In this document: positions 2,760 through 48,278 of the stretch, one piece after another
Layout: each line of letters opens with the position of its first letter
Numbering within the stretch: position 1 is the stretch's first letter
Source: an uncultured Bacilli bacterium
Lineage (GTDB): Bacteria > Bacillota_I > Bacilli_A > RF39 > UBA660
Length of the DNA: 64,000 nt
Direction: 5' to 3'
Assembly: GCA_934149245.1 (NCBI GenBank)
Contig: CAKPER010000001.1
Span: forward strand, 35,236 to 99,235
The notes under the pieces: generated by a model
Told to the model about the DNA's origin: nothing
Databases searched by the model: none
The model's input: only the letters and a program-made list of their open reading frames with translations
Position numbers and translations under genes: made by a program

Positions 2760-5700
2760 TTAAATTATTGATTTTTTCTTTCTGATTATTGTAAATGCTC
2801 CTGCTCCTAGGGATAAACTACCGATTACACTTGGAATAGTACTTGCCCATGAGCCAGTATTTTCTACGGTTATTTCTTTACCTGGAGTACTTGGTGCATC
2901 TGGGGTATTAGGTTGTTCTGGAGTGTTTGGAGTCTCAGGTTTATTATACATTACTACTTTGGTTGTAGTTCCATCATCTTTTACAGTGAAAGTTATTGTT
3001 TCATTACTTAATACATAACCATTTGGGGCTACTACTTCATTTAAAGTATAAGTTCCTGGAGTTAAGTTTGTTATTATATGAGGAGTATCTCCTGATGTCC
3101 ACTCGTCTATGACGTTACCATTTTTATCTTTTACTACTAATTTAGCTCCTGGTAATTCTTTACTAGTTGTAACATCTTGTTTACTAATAGATACTTTTGT
3201 TGTTGTATTTGGAGTATTTTTCATAATAACTGTATTTAATTCTTTTCCTGCTTCATCTAATAATTTTCCATCACTTGATACAGTGAATTTTATTGTTTCA
3301 TTACTTAGAATATAGCCATTTGGAGCTTTTGTTTCAGATAAAGTATAACTTCCTTCTACTAGTTCTACATAGTGAGCATTTTTATCGGTAACCCAGCTAT
3401 CTACTACTTTACCATCTTTATCTTTAATTTCTAAACTGGCTCCAGCTAAATTTTCATTAGTTTTAGCATCTATTTTAACAATTGGATATTTCTTTTGCTC
3501 GGGAGTTGGTTTCTTTTCGTTATACATAACAACTTTATCAATAGCTTTATCATCTTTATTTAATAGAGTTCCTTTAGAATCTATTTTGAATGTTATAGTT
3601 TCTTTGGATAATACATAACCATCTGGAGCTATTGTTTCAGTTAGAGTGTAAGTTCCTTCTGGTAGGTCTTTAATAACATGAGCTTCATTTGTAGATACCC
3701 ATGTATCTATAATTTTACCAGTATTGTCTTTTACTTGCAATGTTGCTCCTGGTAATTCTTTACTAGTTGTAATATCTTGCTTACTAATAGTTACATTAGT
3801 TTTTGGTATTGGTTTATTAAACATTACTACTTCTTTTAGAGTATTACCATTACTATCAGTAATTTTACCTGTTTTATCTACAGTAAATTTAATTGAATCA
3901 GTATTTAGAACATAGCCATTTGGAGCTGATACTTCGCTTAAAATATAATTTCCAGCTTCTATATTTTTAATTATATGTTCTTCTGTAGTTGAGGTCCATT
4001 CATCTATAACTACGCCTTTTTCATTTGCTAATTTTAGCTTTGCACCTGATAATTCTTTGTTAGTAGTTATATCTTTTTTACTAATTTTAATATTTTTTTC
4101 TTCATTAGGTTTATTATACATAATTACTTTATCAATAGATTTTCCAGCTTCATCTGTTAATTTACCATCTTTATCTACAGTAAATTTAATAGTCTCTTTT
4201 GATAATATATAACCATCTGGAGCTACTGTTTCAGTTAAGGTATAAGTTCCTGCTTCAATATTTTTTATAATATGAGGCTCGTTTGTAGATATCCATGTAT
4301 CTATAATTTTGTTATCTTTATCTACTACTTTTAGAGAAGCCCCAGGAAGTTCTTTTTTAGTTGTAATATCTTGTTTGCTAATTGTAATATTTTTCTCTTC
4401 ACTAGGTTTATTATACATAACTACTTTATCAATAGATTTTCCAGATTCATCTGTTAATTTACCATCTTTATCTACAGTAAATTTAATAGTTTCTTTTGAT
4501 AATATATAACCATTTGGAGCTACTGTTTCAGTTAGAGTATAAGTTCCAGCTTCAATATATTTTATAATATGAGGCTCGTTTGTAGATACCCATGTATCTA
4601 TAACTTTATTATTCTTATCTTTTACTTGTAATGTTGCACCTGGTAATTCTTTCTTTGTAGTTATATCTTGTTTGCTAATTTCAATATTTCTTTCTTTTTC
4701 TGGAGTGTTATACATAACTACTTTGTCAATAGTTTTACCATTTTTATCAGTTAGTTTGCCATTTTTATCTATTGTGAAACTTATAGTTTCTTTAGATAAT
4801 ACATATCCTTTTGGTGAGATTGTTTCACTTAAAGTATAAGTTCCTGTAGCTAATCCTCTTATTAAATGTTCTTTATCTGTAGATGTCCATTTATCTATAA
4901 CTTTACCATTTTTATCTTTAAGTTCTAGACTTGCTCCTGGTAATTCTTTATTTGTTGTTATATCTTGTTTACTAATTTTAACACTATTTTTAGTGTTTTT
5001 TAATTCTAATTTTGTTACATTAGTACCACTAGTATTTTTTGTATTACCACTAGCATCTACTGTAAATTTAATAGTTTCTTTAGATAAGATGTAGCCATCT
5101 GGTGCTGATACTTCACTTAAAGTATAAGTACCTTGTGCTAAACTTTTTACAGTATGTTCACTTCCATCTGTAGTCCATCTATCTACTTCTTTATTGTTTG
5201 AATCTGTAATTTTTAAGACAGCACCTTTAACAGCAGTCTTAGTGTCGGCATCAATTTTTACTACTTTTGGTGATTTTACGTTAGTTATGGTAATAGAGCT
5301 TACTTTTTGGCCAGATACTTTTATGTTGCCATCGTTATCTATTACAAAAGTTATTTTATTTTTGTTTAAATTATAGCCATTTGGTGCTGATGCTTCTCCT
5401 ACAGTATAAGTACCTGGATTAAGGTTTTTAATAACGTGAGTTGAACCATTAGATGTCCATCTATCTATTACTTTACCACTAGAGTTTTTAGCTTCTATTA
5501 CAGCACCTTTTAAACTAGATTTAGTATTAAAATCAGTCTTATTTACTGGCACATTAACACTAACTTTTTTATTTATTATTAATTTTGCAGTATCTTCAGC
5601 ATTTTTTACAATCTTATAAGTAACAGCCATCTTTTGATATCTACTATTACTTGGATTATAATTTTGTGATTTAATTATTTCTTTAGAGTTACTTACTTTT

Positions 5701-6410
5701 ACTTTTAAAGTTGTCTTTCCAGGTTTAATTTTAGAATCTGGAACATATACATAAATATATTTTCCACTAACTTTATAAGTTGAACCTTTTGGAGCTCCTA
5801 CTAGAGATACTTTAAATTTTTTCTCTGAGCTTGTTACTTTTATTTTTTTAGAAACATAATTATTTCCACTTTTGCTCATTTCACTTTTATCTGGACTTAA
5901 TTTTATACTTGGTCCACTAAAATTAGGCTTTGAAGCTTTCTTAGCATTAGCAACTAAAGTTCTAATTTTTTTAGCAGTTGCAGAATTACTGCTATAAACT
6001 TTGTTTCTGAATTTAGATACAGAATAAGATTTGTTCATTATTCCTTTATCTGACATATAAATCCATAAAGCAGTTTGATATATAAAGAAATCATTATTAT
6101 TTCTTACGTTTTTATAAGCTTGTTTTAAGATATAGTGCTTACCAGCATCATCAACAATATCTGCTTTCGTATATTTAATACCTGTTGATGGTGTTTTTTT
6201 AGCATATGTTATACAATATGCAAATTTTCCACCAGTAGTCTTTTTTACATGAAATGTTTGTGGATAAGACATAGGTGGATTATGATAGCTTGTACTTTTT
6301 ATTGTAACGCTGCTTGCAATGTTTTCAGCATTAACGATAGTTGTTCCGAAAACAATTGTTGCAATTATAGTAAGAATAAAACTTACTAGTAATTTAAAAT
6401 TCTTTTTCAT
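2760..6410 (-). CDS. Surface adhesin: signal peptide + thioester (TQXA/TED) domain + about 9 CnaB-type repeats + C-terminal membrane/wall anchor
   Basis: 1216 aa. Signal peptide MKKNFKLLVSFILTIIATIVFGTTIVNA. The N-terminal domain carries a Cys (KFAYCITYAK) and the QxA(L)W motif (IYQTALWIY) typical of thioester adhesin domains. Nine ~93-aa repeats follow, of the form SKQDITTxKELPGAxLxVKDKNGKVIDxWxST..H.I..L..GTYTL.E..AP.GY.LS.ETI.FTV...G...VVMYNKP (Lys...Glu...Asn, CnaB/isopeptide-like). The C-terminus is ...TPGKEITVENTGSWASTIPSVIGSLSLGAGAFTIIRKKKSII: a hydrophobic span plus a basic tail. Confidence 0.8.
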   Translation of the reverse strand: MKKNFKLLVSFILTIIATIVFGTTIVNAENIASSVTIKSTSYHNPPMSYPQTFHVKKTTGGKFAYCITYAKKTPSTGIKYTKADIVDDAGKHYILKQAYKNVRNNNDFFIYQTALWIYMSDKGIMNKSYSVSKFRNKVYSSNSATAKKIRTLVANAKKASKPNFSGPSIKLSPDKSEMSKSGNNYVSKKIKVTSSEKKFKVSLVGAPKGSTYKVSGKYIYVYVPDSKIKPGKTTLKVKVSNSKEIIKSQNYNPSNSRYQKMAVTYKIVKNAEDTAKLIINKKVSVNVPVNKTDFNTKSSLKGAVIEAKNSSGKVIDRWTSNGSTHVIKNLNPGTYTVGEASAPNGYNLNKNKITFVIDNDGNIKVSGQKVSSITITNVKSPKVVKIDADTKTAVKGAVLKITDSNNKEVDRWTTDGSEHTVKSLAQGTYTLSEVSAPDGYILSKETIKFTVDASGNTKNTSGTNVTKLELKNTKNSVKISKQDITTNKELPGASLELKDKNGKVIDKWTSTDKEHLIRGLATGTYTLSETISPKGYVLSKETISFTIDKNGKLTDKNGKTIDKVVMYNTPEKERNIEISKQDITTKKELPGATLQVKDKNNKVIDTWVSTNEPHIIKYIEAGTYTLTETVAPNGYILSKETIKFTVDKDGKLTDESGKSIDKVVMYNKPSEEKNITISKQDITTKKELPGASLKVVDKDNKIIDTWISTNEPHIIKNIEAGTYTLTETVAPDGYILSKETIKFTVDKDGKLTDEAGKSIDKVIMYNKPNEEKNIKISKKDITTNKELSGAKLKLANEKGVVIDEWTSTTEEHIIKNIEAGNYILSEVSAPNGYVLNTDSIKFTVDKTGKITDSNGNTLKEVVMFNKPIPKTNVTISKQDITTSKELPGATLQVKDNTGKIIDTWVSTNEAHVIKDLPEGTYTLTETIAPDGYVLSKETITFKIDSKGTLLNKDDKAIDKVVMYNEKKPTPEQKKYPIVKIDAKTNENLAGASLEIKDKDGKVVDSWVTDKNAHYVELVEGSYTLSETKAPNGYILSNETIKFTVSSDGKLLDEAGKELNTVIMKNTPNTTTKVSISKQDVTTSKELPGAKLVVKDKNGNVIDEWTSGDTPHIITNLTPGTYTLNEVVAPNGYVLSNETITFTVKDDGTTTKVVMYNKPETPNTPEQPNTPDAPSTPGKEITVENTGSWASTIPSVIGSLSLGAGAFTIIRKKKSII
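2960..5540 (-). repeat. Tandem ~280-bp coding repeats (CnaB-like modules of the adhesin), highly similar at the DNA level
   Basis: Near-identical DNA blocks recur, e.g. 4100-4400 vs 4390-4680. The plus-strand mini-ORFs 3109..3315, 3724..3915 and 4309..4509 all read APGNSLLVV.SCLLI because of this periodicity. Confidence 0.8.
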
Positions 6411-6526
6411 CCCAATTCCTCCCTTAAATTAGCTCCATATTCTATCACTCTTTGTTAACTCTGTCAAGAACTTTTTAAGAATTTATTAGTATTTAAATGA
6501 AGTTATTTTTGGGATAAAATATGGGA

Positions 6527-6562
6527 TAATAAAAAGAACTAGCTGATAAATTGTTAGTTCTT
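6527..6562 (-). terminator. Rho-independent terminator downstream of the AddB-like gene
   Basis: Stem AAGAACTA (6534-6541) / TAGTTCTT (6555-6562) with a 13-nt loop. On the minus strand a T-run (complement of the A-run 6527-6533) follows. Confidence 0.5.
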
Positions 6563-6638
6563 GGAAAAATAAATTACATCTACTTTAAAACTAATAAAAT
6601 TAAGGTAAGAGAAGCTATTATTTTAAATTAAATGAATA

Positions 6639-9023
6639 TTATTCTTCTTTTAAAAATTCCATCTTTTTATATTCTTTTAAGTTAATTATATCTTTCTCAC
6701 TCATAAAACAAATATCTTTGTAAGTACAAAATTGACACCCAATATTATTCATACCTATTCTTTTAGGATTTATAGTAAAATTAGCATTAGTAATCTCGTG
6801 AATAGCATTATCTATTTTAGATTCCGTTATTTGATATAGTTTATCTATTTCATCATCACTTAAGACTTTTTTTGTTCTAAGTCCATTAGAGGTTGTACTC
6901 ATTCCTTTTATTACTTTACTATTTTGATAGTTAGAATCTAGCATTTCTATTAAGCTCTCATCTATATTAGTATAGCCTTGAAGTTTTAAATTATCTTGCT
7001 TTTGTTTTAGATAATCACTTTTGGGATCAGATGAGGGAATAGGATTTATAATTTTTTGAAGATAGAAACCTACTATTCTAATACTTGGAAACTTATTTTT
7101 AAGAAGATAGATATATGTTGGCAATTGTAAATCTAGGCCATGAATAGTATTATTTAAATTAAACTGTGTACTGCCTGTTTTATAATCGATAATAGCAGCC
7201 ATTTGTTCATCGTTATCTAGCATTATTTTATCAATAAATCCTTTAAATACAATTTTCATATCATTAATACTTTTATCTATTTCTACTCTACTTTCATATA
7301 AACTTTTATTTAGACTAGAATAGCTATATTGTTCTTTAATGGTCTCTATAATGAATTTTAGTTCTTCTTTTAAGTTATTTAAGAAAAATAATTCTTTAGC
7401 ATTAAATTTATATTCTTGTTTATCGATGTATCTTTGATAAGTAGTATCAATATCTATATCTTTATCAAAACAAATAGATAATATGTAGTGAAAAAGATTA
7501 CCTAATATAGTCATAAATGTTTCTTCATAAATATTTATATTTAAGATATTAGATAAATAGTATTTAAAACTACAATGATAATAATTATTAATAGCACTAT
7601 AAGATAAGTTAAGGTTATTCTTTAAATATCGTTTTAAAGTTCTAGGATCTATTTTAGTATACTTATTATTATAAGTCATATATTCTATATCTTTATAATT
7701 ATTAAAGAGAACTTCTAATTCTTTAGAGTAAGTATTATATTTTATTAAATTATCAATTTTATCAGTTAATTCTATTTTATTATAAATGTTAGAATAGTTG
7801 TATTCTTTTTGAGGAATCTCTTGCTCTAGTTTTAAGATATCGTTTAGACTAGATAAGTAATAGTCCCCTGTTAAACTATGGGTTTTATAAGTTATAATTA
7901 GATTTTTAGTGTGCTTTATATCATCAAGCCATTTAGCATGATTTTGATTATTTATATCATTAGAGGTATCTAAATTTAATTTGCTTTTTAAAGAATCACT
8001 AAGATAATCTTCATCTTTTATTGTTTGAGGAATTTGACCTTGATTAAAATTCATAAGAAATACATAATCGCTCTGAGATGCATCACTTAAATTATCTAAT
8101 ATTTCTACTTTAGAAGATAAGTTTTCTTTATTAATTATTTGATTTTTGAAGTCATTTATTAATAATGGTTTTATTTCTAGGTAACTATTGCACCAAGTAT
8201 ATTTATTTAAGATATTAATAATTTTATTGTATATGTCTAGGATATGCTCATCTTCTAAATTATAATTTTCTTCTATAAATGATAAGGTACTAGTTATATC
8301 ATCATCTAAGTGAGATAAGAAGTCTTTAGCAATTTTTGTTGCATAAAGTTTACTTGTATTAAAGGTAATAGGAATATTAAACATTTTAAATATTCTAGAT
8401 ATTGCTATATTATATTCACTATTTATGCCACATATTTTTATGTTATTTATATCTATACCATCAATTACTAATTTACAAATAGATGTTGCAACAAAGACAA
8501 TTTCATCTTCTAGAGAGTTTAGTTTATAAATTTTATTATGGTGGTATTCTTCTTTGGTGTTACTATACATTAAAATATTAGCTTTTGTTTCTTTTTTTAT
8601 TTCTTCTATTAGATTTTGATAAAACTTAGAAAGATATTTATTATTATAGATAATTATATTTTTATGTTGAAGAAAATCTTTAAAAAGTGGTGTATAGTAA
8701 AGTAATTTAGCACTATCTAACTCTTTTTTTAGTTTTTTTAGATGTATAATTTTAGGATCATTTATATCACTAGCAAAATATAAGTAATATAAATTATTTA
8801 AATACTTATTAGCTACATCATAGGTAAAATCATATTTTTTCATTAAATAAAGATGAGCTTTTTCATCATACTTAAAATAAAAATTTTCTTTTAAATCATT
8901 TAGAGTCATAAATTTTATATTTAGTAAACTTTTGCTACTACACTCTTCAATTACTTTTACTTTTTGTTTTTGGCTTGGATTTAATATTAATATGTCATTA
9001 TCTTTTAGTTTATCTATAATCAT
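6639..9023 (-). CDS. AddB/RexB-like PD-(D/E)XK nuclease with Cas4/AddB-type Fe-S Cys cluster (shortened; no addA neighbour)
   Basis: 794 aa. C-terminal domain has YYHCSFKYYL (first Cys), GFIDKIM (motif II Asp), IIDYKTGS (motif III D-x-K) and terminal CQFCTYKDIC (Cx2Cx5C): the iron-staple nuclease layout of AddB/Cas4. No Walker A in the N-terminal 500 aa. Confidence 0.5.
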   Translation of the reverse strand: MIIDKLKDNDILILNPSQKQKVKVIEECSSKSLLNIKFMTLNDLKENFYFKYDEKAHLYLMKKYDFTYDVANKYLNNLYYLYFASDINDPKIIHLKKLKKELDSAKLLYYTPLFKDFLQHKNIIIYNNKYLSKFYQNLIEEIKKETKANILMYSNTKEEYHHNKIYKLNSLEDEIVFVATSICKLVIDGIDINNIKICGINSEYNIAISRIFKMFNIPITFNTSKLYATKIAKDFLSHLDDDITSTLSFIEENYNLEDEHILDIYNKIINILNKYTWCNSYLEIKPLLINDFKNQIINKENLSSKVEILDNLSDASQSDYVFLMNFNQGQIPQTIKDEDYLSDSLKSKLNLDTSNDINNQNHAKWLDDIKHTKNLIITYKTHSLTGDYYLSSLNDILKLEQEIPQKEYNYSNIYNKIELTDKIDNLIKYNTYSKELEVLFNNYKDIEYMTYNNKYTKIDPRTLKRYLKNNLNLSYSAINNYYHCSFKYYLSNILNINIYEETFMTILGNLFHYILSICFDKDIDIDTTYQRYIDKQEYKFNAKELFFLNNLKEELKFIIETIKEQYSYSSLNKSLYESRVEIDKSINDMKIVFKGFIDKIMLDNDEQMAAIIDYKTGSTQFNLNNTIHGLDLQLPTYIYLLKNKFPSIRIVGFYLQKIINPIPSSDPKSDYLKQKQDNLKLQGYTNIDESLIEMLDSNYQNSKVIKGMSTTSNGLRTKKVLSDDEIDKLYQITESKIDNAIHEITNANFTINPKRIGMNNIGCQFCTYKDICFMSEKDIINLKEYKKMEFLKEE

Positions 9024-9047
9024 TATACATCCTACTCTCTTTAATAG

Positions 9048-9641
9048 TTATTTTGTTATTAAATTTTTTACTTCTTCAAATAGCTTATTATTAGCTTCTT
9101 CTAATGTCATATTTTCTACTTTAAAAGGTTTTCCATACTTTATAGTTAAGTTTTTACTTTTAAATTTATAATCTCCTGTTATACCAAATGGTACTATAGT
9201 GGCATTTGTTTTAGAAGCCATAGATACTGCTCCAAATTTAAAGGGAAGTAATAATTTATCTTTAGTTTTGTTTCTAGTTCCCTCGGGGAATAGTCCTATA
9301 GCACCACCACTTTTTAGAATATCTAGGGCTTGTTTAGTTGCTTCTTTATCGTGAATGCTTCTGTTTACTGAAATACAACCAACAAACTTGAAAAACCAAG
9401 CTAATTTAGAATCAAAATATTCTTTTTTAGCCATATAATGAATAGTTCTTTTAGTAGCCATAATTGTTAAGCATTGATCGTAGATGTGTTTGTGGTTACC
9501 TACTATTAAAATTGGACCATCTTTAGGAATTACCTCTTTATTAATTATAGTTGGATTATAATATAATCTAAACAATACTCTCATAAGAGGAGTTAATAAT
9601 CTATAACCAAATTCACCTTTAAATCTAGTTTTCTTTTTCAT
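9048..9641 (-). CDS. PlsC-like lysophospholipid acyltransferase (1-acyl-sn-glycerol-3-phosphate acyltransferase family)
   Basis: 197 aa; HxxxxD motif GNHKHIYDQ and FPEGTR motif (LFPEGTRNK). Size matches Bacillus PlsC. Confidence 0.75.
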   Translation of the reverse strand: MKKKTRFKGEFGYRLLTPLMRVLFRLYYNPTIINKEVIPKDGPILIVGNHKHIYDQCLTIMATKRTIHYMAKKEYFDSKLAWFFKFVGCISVNRSIHDKEATKQALDILKSGGAIGLFPEGTRNKTKDKLLLPFKFGAVSMASKTNATIVPFGITGDYKFKSKNLTIKYGKPFKVENMTLEEANNKLFEEVKNLITK

Positions 9642-16333: not shown

Positions 16334-19300
16334 TTATTTGCTTTTGTTATGTTTTTGCTTTTTATAATAATCTAGATGTTTTTTTAGAACGTCAACCATT
16401 TTATAATAGCCAGTCTCATTCATATTATTAGATACAAATTCATAGTAATTATAAGTAATATCTCCATATTTTTGAGGTTCATGGTTTTCTCCAAAATCCC
16501 ATATTTTATAATCTTTCTTAAATTCAGAGAATGGCTTTATATTACCATCACTTTCTAGAGCATATTTTAAAAATTCTTGACATGCCTTAGTAAACGAGCC
16601 ACCATTTTGTAGTATCCAGTTTTCTACTCCTATACCACTTAAACCACCTTCTGGTACTAGTGAATTTTTTTGCTTATAAGCATTAGCTTCTTTTAGGAGC
16701 TTTTTAGCATAGATAATATTAGCAATTACTAGTGGATATTCTTTGGGATATTGTTTTTTGATAGAGTTTAATCTATCATTTAAAGCCATTTCTGATGAAT
16801 ACTCGACATTACTACGTTTTTGGGCTAGTGATATATCAAGATCAAAATCTTCTTCTATAGAATCTACTTTTATATTCATACCTCGAAAACGGTTATCATG
16901 GGATAAGTTATCTTTAGGATTTAAGATTTTTTTAAATTTATCTAAAAGTGTATGCTCATGTTTTGTTAATTCATTTTTTCCTATTTTTAACATATAATCA
17001 TAATCAGCGTCATTTAAAACATTAGTACCTCTAGAGGTAGAACCAGTTGGAATAAGTTCTAAAATATTACTAGATAAATCATTAGTAATAGTTGGCTCAA
17101 TTTTAAGATTAGGAATTTGGTTAAATTCTAATGTTAATATTTCTTTTATGATAGTCTCAATTACGTTTTGATTATGTTTTTGTTTTTTATTATCTTCGTC
17201 CATTTCTAATAAAATATCTTCTAACTTGTCAAAATAAATAGTATCATCAAGGATATATTTTTCTTTGTCATAATATGATAGTCCAGCCATATGAGAAGCA
17301 ATTTTTTCATATTCTTCAGGAGTAAATATTAAATTACCACTTAAATCAATTACAGGAATATAAAAGCCTTTTTTTACTATTTCAACTTTTAGAGCTGATA
17401 AATCATCTAAGTCGTTATCTTTACTATCACTTTCTAAATAATTTACGCTACCATCTTCTTTGTAAGGGTTATTTGGATCTATTTGTTTATTTTTCTTATA
17501 AATTATATAGTCTATATCAGATGATGCTATTCCAGTTCTTGCTCCCCAATGAGAGTTAAATCCTCCTTTTATAGTTTCAGAACAAAACATTTCTATTTTT
17601 TTAGGATCATATGGAACACCATCTTTGATAGCCTCATCACGAGTTATAGATATCCTAGGGTTATCTTTTTCTAAGACAAAGAAAATATTACCAAAGCCCC
17701 AACCGGTCGGAGTTCCGTTAATTGCATCATATACAGTCTTGGATTTTGCTACTTTAGTAAAGTCAGCATCTAGCTCGGTTGTGTCTGAGATGCTTTTACC
17801 TGTTATTGGTCCTAGATATTCGTTACATAAATTTCCCTCATCCAAAGAACTACCAAAGGCTTCTATAGTACCTATACATCTTAAAAAGTCCCCTTCTGCT
17901 GGAATTGTTTTCTTGTGTCTCATCTTTTCAGCTTTTAAATAATTCTTTTTATTAGTTTTATCAACATTATCTTCCATTAGATTTTTTAATTCATTAAATG
18001 ATTTTATTCCTAAAAAGTAGGCAAAATGTCTAACTATTCTATCTGGTAAGTCGTATCTATTTGTTACTTTAAACTTTTCTCTAAAATAAGTTATTTGTTC
18101 TTTTAAATCTAAGTCAGAGAGATCTTGCTCTTCTTCGTCATCTTCAAGTGGATTTATGTTTTCAGATAAAGCTTTTAGATGAGCAGTAAATGTTTTTAGT
18201 GTGTTTTTATCTTGAATAGATAAGTCTTCTAATTTTAAGTTATTATTAATTAAAGATAAATAAATATTATTACCCTTCTCTATATTTGCTAAATAATTTT
18301 TTAGAGAACGATTATTAGAATAAATTGCTATTCTTAGTAAATCATTATAAATTATTTGAAATCTCATATTTGTTTTGTTCTTTAATTCTCGCGATAGTTT
18401 CTGCATAGCTTTATTATTGGGATTAGCTTTAATTAATTCAGGAGACATTCTACTATCTGGACTGAAATCAAAAGTTCCATCTGTTAATTTTTGTGAAAGA
18501 TCAGGATACAGAATTCTAAAACACTTAAATATTTTACTAAACATTGGAATGTTATTTCTTATAAAAACATTTTCTATTTTATCTAAGCTGGCAATAGGAT
18601 TTTTAGTTTTTAATATTAATCTAGCAAAATTTGTTCGGTAATTATATAACTCTTGAGAGTTTGTTTTAGATAATTTATTTAAAACTTCGGCTATATAATC
18701 TATTTTATTTACATCAATATTATAATTAGTATTTATAATGTAATTTTTAAATTCTTCTTTTAGGCTGTTATCTTTTAGGTTTAGGTAGTTTTCTAATACT
18801 TTTAATCTAGAGTAATTAGCTTTTTTCTGATTTTTATCTTTTGCAAATAGTGGTATCAGCCATGATAGTTTTTGATCTAGGCCACAAATTATATTAGCAT
18901 CATCTATCATATCAACTAAAGATAAGTTGGTTGCAAAATCATTAAATTTAAACTGTCTATTATAAAATTTTTCTTTAATATCATCTGGTACTTTAGCCTC
19001 TAAAAATAGCATCGAATGTTTTTCACGAAATTCTTTTCTAATATTATCATTATATGTAATTCTTCCATCTATTATAGCTTTATAAATACTTTCGTCTAAG
19101 GTGTTTAAGAGGGATTTTGAGGTGATATTTTTAGCACTACTTAAATTTAGCGTAGTGAAATTTGCTATTTTTTCTAAATGATTTCCGTACGACAAAATAG
19201 TCTGAAAAGTAGATTCTTTAAAATGACTTTTCATAAGTGAAATTAAATTAACATATTTTTTTGTAGCTTCATCAAAAACTGGAAGGTGCTTAAAAAGAAT

Positions 19301-21076
19301 TTCTGGATCAATACTTTTTAGATGGTTTTGATATTTGGAATTTGCTATAACATCATCCCAATTTATGCTTCTAGAATAAAAACTTTTCTTTAATTCTTCG
19401 CTAGCATTAGCTGGTAAAAAAGCAGTAGGATAATTATTTTTAAAGTGTTTCGGTAAATTAGCTGGATATTTTTGGGGGAAGAATGTTAAATATTTATAAA
19501 AAATATCATCAAGTTTAGTCATAAGTTCATTTAAATTTGAACTGTTTGTTAAATTTAATTTATTTATTTTTATATCTTCTTTTGTAAAGCCTTGGGCTAA
19601 TACGCTGTTATTATTATTAGTTAATATAGAAAATATATCGCTATAATCACTTAGGAAATGCATGATATCATCATAACTTGCCATATTTTTTATGACAGAA
19701 TATAAATTTTTTCTATTATCTAGAGTATTAATATCTATCATTTTAAAATAACGTTCTAGACTTTTTCCTTTTAAATATTCTAAATATTCAGGATTTTCTT
19801 TTATTATTTTTGGGGTTATTTCTTTTTTATAAAAGACATTTTGTAACTCTTCTGGGGCATTTGGTGAGATAAAATAATCTTCGTTTTGTTCTCTAAACTC
19901 CCCTTTTAGCTCTTTAAAATTTAGTAATATATCTGCAACTTCACTAATAGATGAGTTAGTATATTTTAAAGTTCTTCTTAATAATTCAGCAAATTCTTCT
20001 TTGGTATATGGTTCTTTGCTAGAAGTTCCTTTAAATAAAGGCCCTTCTTCTGAAAACGGCTCTACACTAAGATGAGTTGTAAGATTCTCCATTGCTTTTA
20101 GCATTTGGCAATTATTTTTAGTGAAAAAATTATTATTTTTCTTATCAAACTCTATTATTTGTTGGAAGCCACATCTATCAATAAAATTTAGAATATTATT
20201 ATCACTAATTAGGAGATTAAAAGGAATATTGCTATTTAAAATATAATCTTCTTCTAGATTATTTAGTTCCTGTTTGATAAGAGTACTACAATTAGAAAAG
20301 AAATCTTTTACTTTAAAAGAGGAATATTTGAACAAATCTTTATATTGTTCATTTGTAAGATGCGTTCCTGTTCCCATAACAAGCTGGCCAGATATTTCTA
20401 TTAAAAGATTATCAGTTAGCGTTTGAAGATACTTTTTCTTTTCATCTTCGTTTTGGTTATTCATAGTTTTATCTATAAATTCATAAATATTCGTGCTATC
20501 TTTAGTTAAGTTTATTAGAGTTTTATAATTATTCATAAAAGCTTTTACTTGGTTGTTAGTTATATGATGAGTATTATTTTTATCATGGATTAAGCAATAA
20601 GTTAAATCTTTATCTTTGTATAACTCCCAATTTTCTATTATATCTTTTAAAGATAAAGTGCCATTATTAAATTTTAATTTTTCATTTTTTTGGTCAACAA
20701 GATCTGTAAATAATCTATCTTTATAAATGTTTTTCATTTTAGATGAATATGCTGTTGGAGGTATTTTATCTTTTATTTTTTCGTACAAAATATAATTGAT
20801 ATCTTTTTCATCTTTTGTTAATGTTTTTAATAAATCTAAACATATTGAATACTTGTTTATTAATTCCCAATCTAATGTTTTAGAATTTTTAATACCAAAT
20901 TTTTCTACTATTTTAAAATCCTTACTTCTTATACATGATAATGGTATTTTATCAATTAAATCATATTTAATAAACTCTTCAAAAGAAATATTATTTGTAT
21001 AGATTTTTTCTAATATTTCAGAAGGAACATTTAATTTTCTACCAAATAATTGGTTTTTTCTATATTTATATTTCAT
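16334..21076 (-). CDS. Giant (1580 aa) N/K-rich hypothetical protein with a C-terminal polymerase-beta-type nucleotidyltransferase (NTP_transf_2-like) motif
   Basis: About 230 aa from the C-terminus: LIPTGSTSRGTNVLNDADYDYML, i.e. h-G-S-x2-R-G-x6-D-x-D, then a third acidic strand (IKVDSIEEDFDLDIS). Upstream there are repeated PxNAxEEL..FY motifs (NAPEELQNVFYKK, ANASEELKKSFYSR). No signal peptide. Confidence 0.45.
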   Translation of the reverse strand: MKYKYRKNQLFGRKLNVPSEILEKIYTNNISFEEFIKYDLIDKIPLSCIRSKDFKIVEKFGIKNSKTLDWELINKYSICLDLLKTLTKDEKDINYILYEKIKDKIPPTAYSSKMKNIYKDRLFTDLVDQKNEKLKFNNGTLSLKDIIENWELYKDKDLTYCLIHDKNNTHHITNNQVKAFMNNYKTLINLTKDSTNIYEFIDKTMNNQNEDEKKKYLQTLTDNLLIEISGQLVMGTGTHLTNEQYKDLFKYSSFKVKDFFSNCSTLIKQELNNLEEDYILNSNIPFNLLISDNNILNFIDRCGFQQIIEFDKKNNNFFTKNNCQMLKAMENLTTHLSVEPFSEEGPLFKGTSSKEPYTKEEFAELLRRTLKYTNSSISEVADILLNFKELKGEFREQNEDYFISPNAPEELQNVFYKKEITPKIIKENPEYLEYLKGKSLERYFKMIDINTLDNRKNLYSVIKNMASYDDIMHFLSDYSDIFSILTNNNNSVLAQGFTKEDIKINKLNLTNSSNLNELMTKLDDIFYKYLTFFPQKYPANLPKHFKNNYPTAFLPANASEELKKSFYSRSINWDDVIANSKYQNHLKSIDPEILFKHLPVFDEATKKYVNLISLMKSHFKESTFQTILSYGNHLEKIANFTTLNLSSAKNITSKSLLNTLDESIYKAIIDGRITYNDNIRKEFREKHSMLFLEAKVPDDIKEKFYNRQFKFNDFATNLSLVDMIDDANIICGLDQKLSWLIPLFAKDKNQKKANYSRLKVLENYLNLKDNSLKEEFKNYIINTNYNIDVNKIDYIAEVLNKLSKTNSQELYNYRTNFARLILKTKNPIASLDKIENVFIRNNIPMFSKIFKCFRILYPDLSQKLTDGTFDFSPDSRMSPELIKANPNNKAMQKLSRELKNKTNMRFQIIYNDLLRIAIYSNNRSLKNYLANIEKGNNIYLSLINNNLKLEDLSIQDKNTLKTFTAHLKALSENINPLEDDEEEQDLSDLDLKEQITYFREKFKVTNRYDLPDRIVRHFAYFLGIKSFNELKNLMEDNVDKTNKKNYLKAEKMRHKKTIPAEGDFLRCIGTIEAFGSSLDEGNLCNEYLGPITGKSISDTTELDADFTKVAKSKTVYDAINGTPTGWGFGNIFFVLEKDNPRISITRDEAIKDGVPYDPKKIEMFCSETIKGGFNSHWGARTGIASSDIDYIIYKKNKQIDPNNPYKEDGSVNYLESDSKDNDLDDLSALKVEIVKKGFYIPVIDLSGNLIFTPEEYEKIASHMAGLSYYDKEKYILDDTIYFDKLEDILLEMDEDNKKQKHNQNVIETIIKEILTLEFNQIPNLKIEPTITNDLSSNILELIPTGSTSRGTNVLNDADYDYMLKIGKNELTKHEHTLLDKFKKILNPKDNLSHDNRFRGMNIKVDSIEEDFDLDISLAQKRSNVEYSSEMALNDRLNSIKKQYPKEYPLVIANIIYAKKLLKEANAYKQKNSLVPEGGLSGIGVENWILQNGGSFTKACQEFLKYALESDGNIKPFSEFKKDYKIWDFGENHEPQKYGDITYNYYEFVSNNMNETGYYKMVDVLKKHLDYYKKQKHNKSK

Positions 21077-21374
21077 ATATTATCACCTACAATACTATCT
21101 TTTACTGCTTATTATCTATAATTAAATGATAGCTTATTATTGGTAAGTTGTAAATATTTTAGGTAAAATTTGACATATGAATGCAAAAAAATACTTCATA
21201 TTATTTTAGAAATAATAGTTCTATAATATTTAGTGGGCTTAGATATAACACTCACTAATTTTATTTCATTAATTTGTTTATTGCATTTATATTTCTCTTT
21301 AAAACAAAATATTATCTGTAAAATCATAATGTAACTCTAATGTATTATCATAATCTGTAACTAATAGTTTCATA

Positions 21375-22058
21375 TTATTCCTTAGGCTCGAAAGTTAAAA
21401 CATTTCCAAATATTTCTAGTTTATTAGTGCTTCTATCATAAATCATTGCACCATCATCAAATATTGCATATACATTTTTCTTCTTATCATTAGCAATTTT
21501 TTGTAATTTATCTAAATATCTCTTATTATTTATTGAATGGACATCCATATAAAATGGATCATCTAAAACTCCAAAACCATCGTAAAAAGCAAAATATTTA
21601 TAATAATTATTTTTAGCTGTAATAAAATATCTTTTTAATTGCAAATCTGAACCTGCACTAAATCCAATAATAATTCCTTTATAATGTTTTATATTATATA
21701 AAATTTCAGTTTCTTGAGTAACTTTACTATATAACATTTCAGGATTACCACCAGTTATTACTAATATATCACTATTATCTATTATCGATTTAAAGTTTTT
21801 AAAATTATCTTTATCATAACAGTTCAAAACAGTTATATTTTCTTCAGTAATTCCTAATTTTAATAATGACCCAACATATTTATTATATCTTCTTCCACCT
21901 TTTGGAAGCCATTCTTCATCAAATGTTTTCTTATCTATTTCCGTAGGAAAAGTCCAAGCAATAATTACAGCCTTTTGTGTAGGATTAATCATTTTTTTAA
22001 TTTTAATTTCAACAAGTTCCATACCTCTTTCATATTCACTTAATAATATACTATACAT
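21375..22058 (-). CDS. Peptidase S51 (dipeptidase E/cyanophycinase-like) family protein
   Basis: 227 aa; Ser-nucleophile motif IIGFSAGS and S51-like topology (VITGGNPE... upstream). Confidence 0.55.
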   Translation of the reverse strand: MYSILLSEYERGMELVEIKIKKMINPTQKAVIIAWTFPTEIDKKTFDEEWLPKGGRRYNKYVGSLLKLGITEENITVLNCYDKDNFKNFKSIIDNSDILVITGGNPEMLYSKVTQETEILYNIKHYKGIIIGFSAGSDLQLKRYFITAKNNYYKYFAFYDGFGVLDDPFYMDVHSINNKRYLDKLQKIANDKKKNVYAIFDDGAMIYDRSTNKLEIFGNVLTFEPKE

Positions 22059-48201: not shown

Positions 48202-48278
48202 TGGTGTCTCCGAGGTGATTCGAACACCTGACCGATCGCTTAGAAGGCGATTGCTCTATCCAGCTGAGCTACGGAGAC
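48202..48278 (-). tRNA. tRNA-Arg (anticodon TCT)
   Basis: Reverse complement: GTCTCCGTAGCTCAGCTGGATAGAGCAATCGCCTTCTAAGCGATCGGTCAGGTGTTCGAATCACCTCGGAGACACCA. Cloverleaf with 7-bp acceptor stem, anticodon loop CUUCUAA (UCU), T-loop GTTCGAATC and encoded CCA. Confidence 0.85.

Follow-up and report, generated by a model that had tools for sequence, protein, structure and literature searches.

A giant protein of uncultured gut Bacilli with a fixed C-terminal cassette and a predicted Pol-beta-type nucleotidyltransferase

The gene and its product

The window analysed here is a stretch of 64,000 nucleotides from an uncultured Bacilli bacterium (contig CAKPER010000001.1), and the gene in question encodes a giant protein of 1580 amino acids (aa). 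The protein ends in what structure prediction and conservation indicate to be an intact Pol-beta-type nucleotidyltransferase (NTase), the last part of a cassette of ~830 aa that is kept in a large family of relatives. The G+C content of the window is ~26%, and all its open reading frames (ORFs) of at least 150 aa lie on the minus strand. The features of the gene are collected in Table 1.

An original prediction, made from the sequence alone, had described a cytoplasmic giant of this length lacking a signal peptide, and this description holds. The maximal 19-residue mean on the Kyte-Doolittle scale is 1.07 and the N-terminus is basic and hydrophilic; therefore no signal peptide or membrane segment is predicted, and the protein is cytoplasmic by prediction. 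The richness in Asn and Lys, pointed out at the same time, is present (K 11.8%, N 10.2%, together 22.0%) but is a property of the genome rather than of this protein, because the other 42 ORFs of the window contain 19.1 +/- 3.3% of these two residues.

A good Shine-Dalgarno sequence, AGGTGA, lies 8 nucleotides (nt) upstream of the ATG. The promoter-like site in the AT-rich upstream region is just a candidate, since the consensus scan found 29 such sites compared to a mean of 39 in shuffled controls.

It had been considered that the protein might belong to a known family of large surface or structural proteins. Searches of Pfam and NCBIfam gave no real match, and a match to Obg_CgtA_exten (16.5 bits, cut-off 37.7) was dismissed as noise. 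The PHROGs scan gave nothing usable. Sequence searches of the PDB with the giant protein and with profiles A1, A2, A3 and A6 gave chance matches only (PP2A, an uncharacterised protein and a designed NTF2 protein).

Table 1. Features of the giant gene and its upstream region, in window positions
Feature	Position	Strand	Basis
Whole gene, 1580 aa and stop, ATG start	16334..21076	-	ORF list and translation
N-terminal domain, aa 1-380, matching no known family	19937..21076	-	Conservation profile; conserved within the Bacilli subfamily
Repeat unit R1, aa 385-535, motif APEELQNVFYKK	19472..19924	-	hhalign R1 vs R2; motif position
Repeat unit R2, aa 535-680, motif ASEELKKSFYSR	19037..19474	-	hhalign; relatives align in shifted registers
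Partial repeat R3, aa 680-750, motif VPDDIKEKFYNR	18827..19039	-	hhalign vs R1 and R2
Helical region of the cassette, aa 750-1050, including the very conserved aa 801-860	17927..18829	-	Directly before the central domain in 139/145 representatives
Central domain, aa 1055-1285, containing GTPTGWGFGN...	17222..17914	-	AlphaFold2, conservation, dN/dS
Predicted two-lobed Pol-beta-type NTase, aa 1320-1575	16352..17119	-	AlphaFold2 and Foldseek, PADLOC Cyclase HMMs, NTP_transf_2, CdnE profile match
Catalytic motif GSTSRGTNVLNDADYD, aa 1345-1360 (G1345-S1346, D1358, D1360)	16997..17044	-	Translation
Strand FDLDIS, aa 1411-1416, third carboxylate D1414	16829..16846	-	Translation
Start of helical lobe GGLSGIGVENWILQNG, aa 1477-1492, where the family is best conserved	16601..16648	-	Conservation
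Upstream intergenic region, AT-rich; holds the ribosome-binding site AGGTGA and one site resembling a promoter	21077..21374	-	Sequence
Promoter-like site, candidate	21154-21126	-	Consensus scan

The C-terminal nucleotidyltransferase

That the chain ends in a Pol-beta-type NTase, as the original prediction had proposed, is indicated by hidden Markov model (HMM) matches, structure prediction and family-wide conservation, which agree. An AlphaFold2 (AF2) model of aa 900-1580, made with 18 aligned relatives, had a predicted local distance difference test score (pLDDT) of 81 and a predicted template-modelling score (pTM) of 0.82, and an NTase fold, with the alpha-beta-alpha-beta core of the superfamily, was found in it. 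When the model was compared to the PDB with Foldseek, 28 structures matched at E<=1e-3, and every one is a Pol-beta NTase that has a second helical lobe. The top match was CdnC (6u7b, E 3.8e-5); the class I CCA-adding enzyme of A. fulgidus (E 5.5e-5), CdnE (target template-modelling (TM) score 0.52), Cid1, CdnD, GLD-2 and NF90/NF45 were also among them, and OASL and poly(A) polymerase (PAP) fell just above 1e-3. Since the alignments span about 300 columns, they cover both lobes. The chain stops at aa 1580, just past the helical lobe, which supplies the model's last helix.

In sequence searches the giant protein matches an HMM of PADLOC for the oligonucleotide cyclases of the cyclic oligonucleotide-based anti-phage signalling system (CBASS), with E from 5e-6 to 7e-7. 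The PADLOC Cyclase HMMs match 14 of the 18 relatives (E 7e-7 to 1e-2), over profile positions ~10-131 of 253-287 only. NTP_transf_2 (PF01909) was found in 13 of the 18, below or near threshold (best 7e-5), and above its gathering score of 21 in two super-giants, P0332 (25.7 bits) and P0331 (21.6 bits); SMODS matches three of the 18. Searched against the PDB, the family profile gave CdnE (6e0m, E 0.015, over 53 residues).

The hG[GS] loop, the [DE]x[DE] pair and the third carboxylate of the Pol-beta superfamily are all present in the giant protein. The signature hG[GS]x2RGx6DxD that had been read from the sequence was found, with the correction that 7 residues rather than 6 separate RG from DxD. 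The third acidic strand was likewise correctly recognised. Conservation was assessed over 145 divergent representatives of the family, clustered at 50%. G1345, S1346, D1358 and D1360 are 99% conserved and position 1414 is D in 95%, and in the 18-sequence alignment it is always D or E. K1458, K1468, G1478, G1483, E1485 and W1487 are conserved in 100%. Because the catalytic and helical-lobe residues are 95-100% conserved, the pattern is that of an active enzyme.

This conservation bears on the idea of a catalytically dead scaffold, in which the NTase-like domain would have a structural or binding role in a large architectural protein, as in the DZF domains of NF45/NF90. The inactive NF90-NF45 domains are indeed among the Foldseek matches, and two-thirds of the giant protein is helical or repetitive. 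However, G-S, D1358, D1360, D1414, K1458, K1468 and E1485 all fall in the 95-100% range, and to our knowledge dead NTase domains do not show such conservation. A dead scaffold is therefore very improbable.

Taken together, the models and alignments indicate that the C-terminal ~260 aa form a catalytically intact two-lobed Pol-beta-type NTase. By predicted structure it belongs to the group that contains the cGAS/DncV-like NTases (CD-NTases) and cGAS, the oligoadenylate synthases (OAS), the class I CCA-adding enzymes and the poly(A)/poly(U) polymerases, and it is not assignable specifically to the CD-NTases, the CCA/PAP enzymes or OAS. The earlier comparison with minimal NTases (MNT) was too narrow, since the domain has a second, helical lobe as do OAS, the CD-NTases, the CCA-adding enzymes and PAP.

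Cassette, scaffold and family

The NTase had been taken as a terminal addition to an odd protein. It is instead the last part of a fixed cassette, by which a large family is defined. When an HMM for each segment was scanned against the 145 representatives, the helical region, central domain and NTase were found in this order in 139; the other six, with the NTase only or the central domain and NTase, are probably fragments. The cassette (aa ~750-1580) consists of ~300 aa of helices, the central domain of ~230 aa, a long connecting helix and the NTase, which was never found alone in complete proteins. In 69 representatives the N-termini are unrelated to that of the window protein, and super-giants of 2000-6900 aa carry the cassette internally. 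As the cassette is fixed while the N-termini swap, aa ~750-1580 are the conserved unit.

An exhaustive HMMER search, in which the NTase profile was run against 1.84 billion representatives, yielded 812 proteins at E<=1e-3, of which 646 were at E<=1e-30. With few weaker matches bridging to other NTases, this is a discrete family. A word-indexed protein search gave a cluster of 143 sequences at 94% identity, in which 15 of 15 listed members are 1580 aa long, and about 60 full-length relatives at 34-40% identity, none with a protein name or a Pfam domain. Conservation is full-length, with variable linkers near aa 481-520, 861-900, 1201-1225 and 1301-1320. Pfam searches of 15 divergent or super-giant relatives found NTP_transf_2 and one Transglut_core only, and no description of the cassette family was found in the literature searched. 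The kind of enzyme, a Pol-beta NTase, is already known; what is new is the architecture of the family. Neither this architecture nor the central domain nor the family itself is described in Pfam, NCBIfam, the PDB or the literature searched.

Relatives were found in 435 species in a scan of one genome per GTDB species. The 79 loci that were kept for study all come from uncultured organisms, with labels that are mostly Bacilli and otherwise Tenericutes or Mycoplasmatota and bins of the 'Clostridium sp. CAG:914' type, from human, rabbit, mouse and ruminant guts. The exact giant protein recurs in several human gut metagenomes. Some metagenome-assembled genomes (MAGs) have two copies of the gene. 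Candidate phyla are also represented, by short matches labelled Saccharibacteria and Collierbacteria.

In four super-giants of 4900-6900 aa (P0259, P0293, P0321 and P0356) the cassette is internal; aa 220-321 of P0321 form a transglutaminase-like core, and the rest of the four is without annotation. Two metagenome contigs with oral-type sample names, L080 (G+C 34-43%) and L081, carry the C-terminal half of the giant, and on each the cassette gene is split in two ORFs, at different points: L080 at 4219-9056 (1246 + 351 aa) and L081 at 4936-9512 (1018 + 503 aa). The break in L080 is a frameshift within the central domain. The splits may reflect pseudogenes, errors of assembly or programmed frameshifting. 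Short proteins with the NTase or the central domain only were considered as stand-alone homologues and rejected: those of L080 and L081 are giants split by frameshift, and most of the other such sequences sit on contigs a few kb long and probably derive from broken giant genes.

The N-terminal ~750 aa are, by sequence comparison, an exchangeable scaffold, made of a lineage-specific domain and tandem repeats of ~145 aa. The domain at aa 1-380 is present in only a minority of the representatives. The repeated motif P(A)NA(P/S)EEL(K/Q)xxFY of the original prediction was borne out and marks the repeats: APxELxxxFY occurs at aa 406-417, 557-568 and 696-706, with a weak fourth copy at aa 17-35. R1 and R2 align with an hhalign probability of 99.7% (E 2e-26), and R3, which keeps the first third of a unit, aligns with both at 97.5-98.1% over about 55 columns. 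One relative, P0005, has four copies. Three groups of relatives show the exchange. P0069-71 share only aa 1-745 of the giant and continue with a different C-terminus; P0066-68, P0064, P0072 and L080/L081 share only aa ~750-1572; and P0073-80 share only the repeats. The C-terminus of P0069, P0070 and P0071, which come from metagenomes, is ~600 aa long and without annotation, and its conserved motifs YYGF, SSYN, YIVCFDG and AAxYFNIPI may mark another enzymatic module.

In the AF2 model the end of the helical region, aa 900-1055, is all helical. Neither of the two modelled regions includes the helical segment at aa 801-860 (window 18497-18674, minus strand; LSKTNSQELYNYR...NNIPMFSKIFKCFRILYPDL), one of the best-conserved parts of the giant, with N806, E835, P844 and K848 conserved in about 99-100% of the representatives.

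The central domain looks enzymatic from its conserved residues. D1063, E1086, D1098, T1100, D1103, D1105, K1136, R1146, E1162, H1176 and R1180 are near-invariant in the representatives. Its dN/dS, 0.078 in comparison with a strain of 95% identity, is the lowest in the gene, which suggests a second active or ligand-binding site. An AF2 model made with 24 relatives had a pLDDT of 80 and a pTM of 0.77, with one low-confidence loop over the invariant SDxTPLD segment, just before the DxD strand. Foldseek searches of the PDB and BFVD with this model gave nothing significant, there is no sequence relative in Pfam or the PDB, and no homologue was found beyond the giant's own family. A second NTase or a PD-(D/E)xK nuclease, suggested by the DxD strand and the order of secondary structures, was rejected, as neither appeared among the Foldseek matches. 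The best matches in both libraries are ADP-ribosyltransferases (ARTs) or their relatives, and an ART-like fold is a fair guess from the model, at somewhat less than an even chance. E1162 fits the Glu of ART strand 5, and the strand-1 position is K or R and variable (R1066 in the giant). No conserved Tyr or STS motif was found in the domain, and no H-Y-E or R-S-E triad in canonical order.

Genomic context, function and comparison with known systems

The giant gene had been described as wedged between priA and a peptidase gene. priA, 65 nt downstream, is certain (NCBIfam, 889 bits). Upstream there are a Peptidase_S51-like gene (21375-22058, minus strand), which matches weakly (29 bits, cut-off 23.9), a phosphoglucomutase-family gene and a PP2C phosphatase gene. 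The S51-giant-priA order is found in the gut metagenomes that contain the exact protein. In the 95%-identical strain L086 the S51-like gene is missing and the phosphoglucomutase-family gene is followed directly by the giant; the S51-like gene is therefore a strain-variable insertion or deletion. Among the 79 related loci the window neighbours are not conserved beside the giant gene, and with no conserved context the wedging is uninformative. Conserved partners such as HEPN proteins or effectors, for which a search had been recommended, were not found nearby in these loci. The one neighbour cluster that recurs is a mixture of generic ABC transporters, located on both sides of the gene at distances of 0.5-9 kb, and it was rejected as a partner.

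The 110 flanking proteins match 147 Pfam families of housekeeping type, including aminoacyl-tRNA synthetases, sigma factors, PolA, topoisomerase and enolase, and no phage, conjugation or defence theme was seen among them. In L080 and L081 the cassette gene lies between prfA-prmC and rpmE-rpsB-tsf. A phage origin was rejected when a scan of 2.9 million IMG/VR contigs found no relative. The giant gene is thus chromosomal and has no conserved partner gene. It is under purifying selection, with a dN/dS of 0.16 against the strain at 95% nucleotide identity, weaker than on priA (0.066) or the phosphoglucomutase-family gene (0.022).

Elsewhere in the window, an ORF at 2760-6410 (minus strand, 1216 aa) encodes several isopeptide domains of the CnaB/SpyCatcher type, like those of collagen adhesins and pilins (best PDB match 6fwv, E 2e-26), and the organism is probably a walled Gram-positive bacterium with surface adhesins. 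For the ORF at 6639-9023 (minus strand, 794 aa) a PDB sequence search gave no match at E<=1e-5. The only RNA gene in the window is that of tRNA-Arg(TCT), at 48202-48278 (minus strand), and its 3' CCA is genome-encoded.

The best sequence matches of the NTase are all to CBASS oligonucleotide cyclases or SMODS, and CdnC leads the structural matches. These would fit a self-contained anti-phage or conflict sensor of the CBASS or OAS type, in which the scaffold would sense an invader, the NTase would make a cyclic or linear oligonucleotide, and the central domain, whose only fold hints are ARTs, would be a built-in effector that possibly uses nicotinamide adenine dinucleotide (NAD). Exchangeable N-terminal modules, super-giant variants and double copies in some MAGs are in keeping with such a sensor. 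The PADLOC matches, however, are biased towards cyclases, because PADLOC has few NTases from outside defence. The loci contain no conserved effector, HORMA, Cap2 or other partner, and the neighbours are housekeeping genes rather than defence islands. The full-length conservation across relatives in the 435 species genomes, mostly labelled uncultured Bacilli, looks vertical, not patchy, and a diffusible signal would be pointless with sensor and effector on one chain. A sensor of this kind is unlikely.

The modularity of the termini could also point to a delivered effector, a polyvalent protein or a polymorphic toxin, with a constant N-terminal region for trafficking and scaffolding and exchangeable NTase and ART-like 'warheads' that would modify the proteins of another cell by nucleotidylation or ADP-ribosylation. 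Pol-beta NTases and ARTs are typical of polyvalent proteins (PMC5512222), the N-module occurs with another C-terminus in P0069-71 and the cassette with other N-termini, one super-giant relative has a transglutaminase-like protease core, and the carriers include host-associated lineages with reduced genomes. Against this, no phage, type IV secretion system (T4SS), type VII secretion system (T7SS) or conjugation genes lie nearby; the giant is followed by priA and not by a small immunity-like ORF; the IMG/VR scan was without a relative; no secretion signal or known trafficking domain was found; and the cassette is invariant, not polymorphic. We consider delivery to another cell quite unlikely. 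Both conflict readings stay alive because of the modular termini and the bias of the sequence matches to CD-NTases, and both are disfavoured because of the housekeeping contexts, the full-length conservation across the clade and the absence from phages.

The explanation that we favour, with slightly better than even confidence, is that the giant is a cytoplasmic, chromosomally inherited multidomain enzyme, in which an NTase cassette on an exchangeable scaffold would carry out template-free transfer of a nucleoside monophosphate (NMP). The NTase would bind a nucleoside triphosphate and two metal ions via D1358, D1360 and D1414 and would transfer the NMP to a hydroxyl group on an acceptor, either a nucleic acid or a nucleotide; this would amount to tailing of RNA 3' ends or synthesis of short oligonucleotides. 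The central domain would provide a second site, for catalysis or ligand binding, by which the same substrate is acted on or gated, and the repeats would position the cassette on a cellular target.

Several points weigh against this explanation. The acceptor substrate is pure inference, and protein nucleotidylation (AMPylation), one of the roles that the original prediction had listed beside a signalling-nucleotide synthase and an effector, is a further possibility. The sequence-level links to named NTases are all marginal and concern mainly the catalytic lobe; when the NTase profile was aligned with the A. fulgidus CCA-adding enzyme by hhalign, 141 columns were matched with a probability of 1% and E 0.048. 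Pfam had no match for the window protein. The central domain has no significant fold match: its best PDB match is DarT, at E 0.18, followed by DarT1, tankyrase, C3larvin and SidE, and in BFVD the best is A0A4D6BGP0 (E 4.5e-3), with a DUF3626 protein at E 0.015 and a probability of 0.8. The AF2 models cover residues from aa 900 onwards only. Finally, swappable N- and C-modules and two copies in some MAGs are also typical of conflict systems.

A bolder proposal is possible, though on balance doubtful. The cassette may represent an unrecognised, vertically inherited clade of the cGAS/OAS/CCA class, joined to a new catalytic domain, with a cellular nucleic-acid function that is neither defence nor toxin. 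This function might be the tailing or marking of RNA 3' ends, the repair of RNA or a nucleotide signal within the cell. It would serve host-associated bacteria with reduced genomes, both gut Bacilli and members of the candidate phyla radiation (CPR), and the central domain might have a novel enzyme fold or be an ART that has diverged strongly.

Clustered at 50% identity, the family numbers at least 646 clusters, and it is frequent in gut metagenomes of humans and animals. In its invariant cassette, an NTase of the cGAS/OAS/CCA class that is apparently active is joined to a second, strongly constrained domain. Knowledge of the substrate would allow 'dark' proteins to be annotated by the hundred, among the largest in uncultured gut Bacilli and in bacteria of candidate phyla, and could reveal a new RNA-modifying activity or a nucleotide-signalling design without partners.

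Among known systems, ARTs resemble the central domain only. DarT (7omv, 8baq) and proteins of the DUF3626/SopF type are its top non-significant Foldseek matches, and SopF is an ART. DUF3626 is the SopF family (PMC6682159). The ART-like feature is a beta-rich core in which a long loop precedes the strand that opens with the invariant E1162. In contrast, the E-values are 0.015-0.18, the TM-scores are about 0.3, and ARTs do not typically have an invariant acid cluster such as that of D1063, E1086, D1098, D1103 and D1105.

Polyvalent proteins of phages and conjugative elements carry Pol-beta NTases and ARTs as typical protein-modifying domains (Iyer et al. 2017, PMC5512222). The giant resembles them as a multidomain chain with a Pol-beta NTase, a possibly ART-like domain, uncharacterised helical modules and shuffled architectures. 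Polyvalent proteins have virion or T4SS contexts, whereas the cassette family has housekeeping neighbours and is absent from IMG/VR. As to the traits of polymorphic toxins, the search of the protein and its loci found no known trafficking domain, no signal peptide and no conserved small ORF downstream; modular termini do exist.

The archaeal class I CCA-adding enzyme (A. fulgidus, 1r89/4x4u), Cid1, GLD-2 and yeast PAP match over about 300 columns, with Foldseek E from 5.5e-5 to 2e-3. The target TM-score is only 0.31-0.40 against the CCA-adding enzymes, which are 430-440 aa long. There is a likeness between GGLSGIGVENWILQNGGSF and RGFSGYLCELLIVFYGSF of the archaeal enzyme; the hhalign alignment, made with a sequence verified to be identical to 1r89_A, places these collinearly and is not significant, and this likeness is a lead only. 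The motifs that line up in the same order are GS-x-x-R-x-T, DxD, the third acidic residue and, where the helical lobe begins, G-[FL]-S-G-x3-E-x2-I...GSF; there GGLSGIGVENWILQNG aligns with RGFSGYLCELLIVFYG, again short of statistical significance. CCA-adding enzymes have body and tail domains for the acceptor and T-arm of tRNA, whereas the giant has none after its helical lobe. The CCA of the window's one tRNA gene is already genome-encoded.

The CD-NTases (CdnC 6u7b, CdnE 6e0m/6wt9, CdnD 6p82) and SMODS share the GS...DxD...D core followed by a helical lobe. They give the best Foldseek E, target TM-scores of 0.44-0.52 and the only sequence-profile matches. A CBASS operon with a Cap effector, often with Cap2/Cap3 or HORMA/TRIP13, had no conserved counterpart beside the gene in the 79 loci. 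CD-NTases are stand-alone proteins of ~300-400 aa, encoded beside Cap effectors in mobile defence operons, whereas the NTase described here lacks a partner gene, ends a chain of 1580 aa and is always preceded by the same 570 aa.

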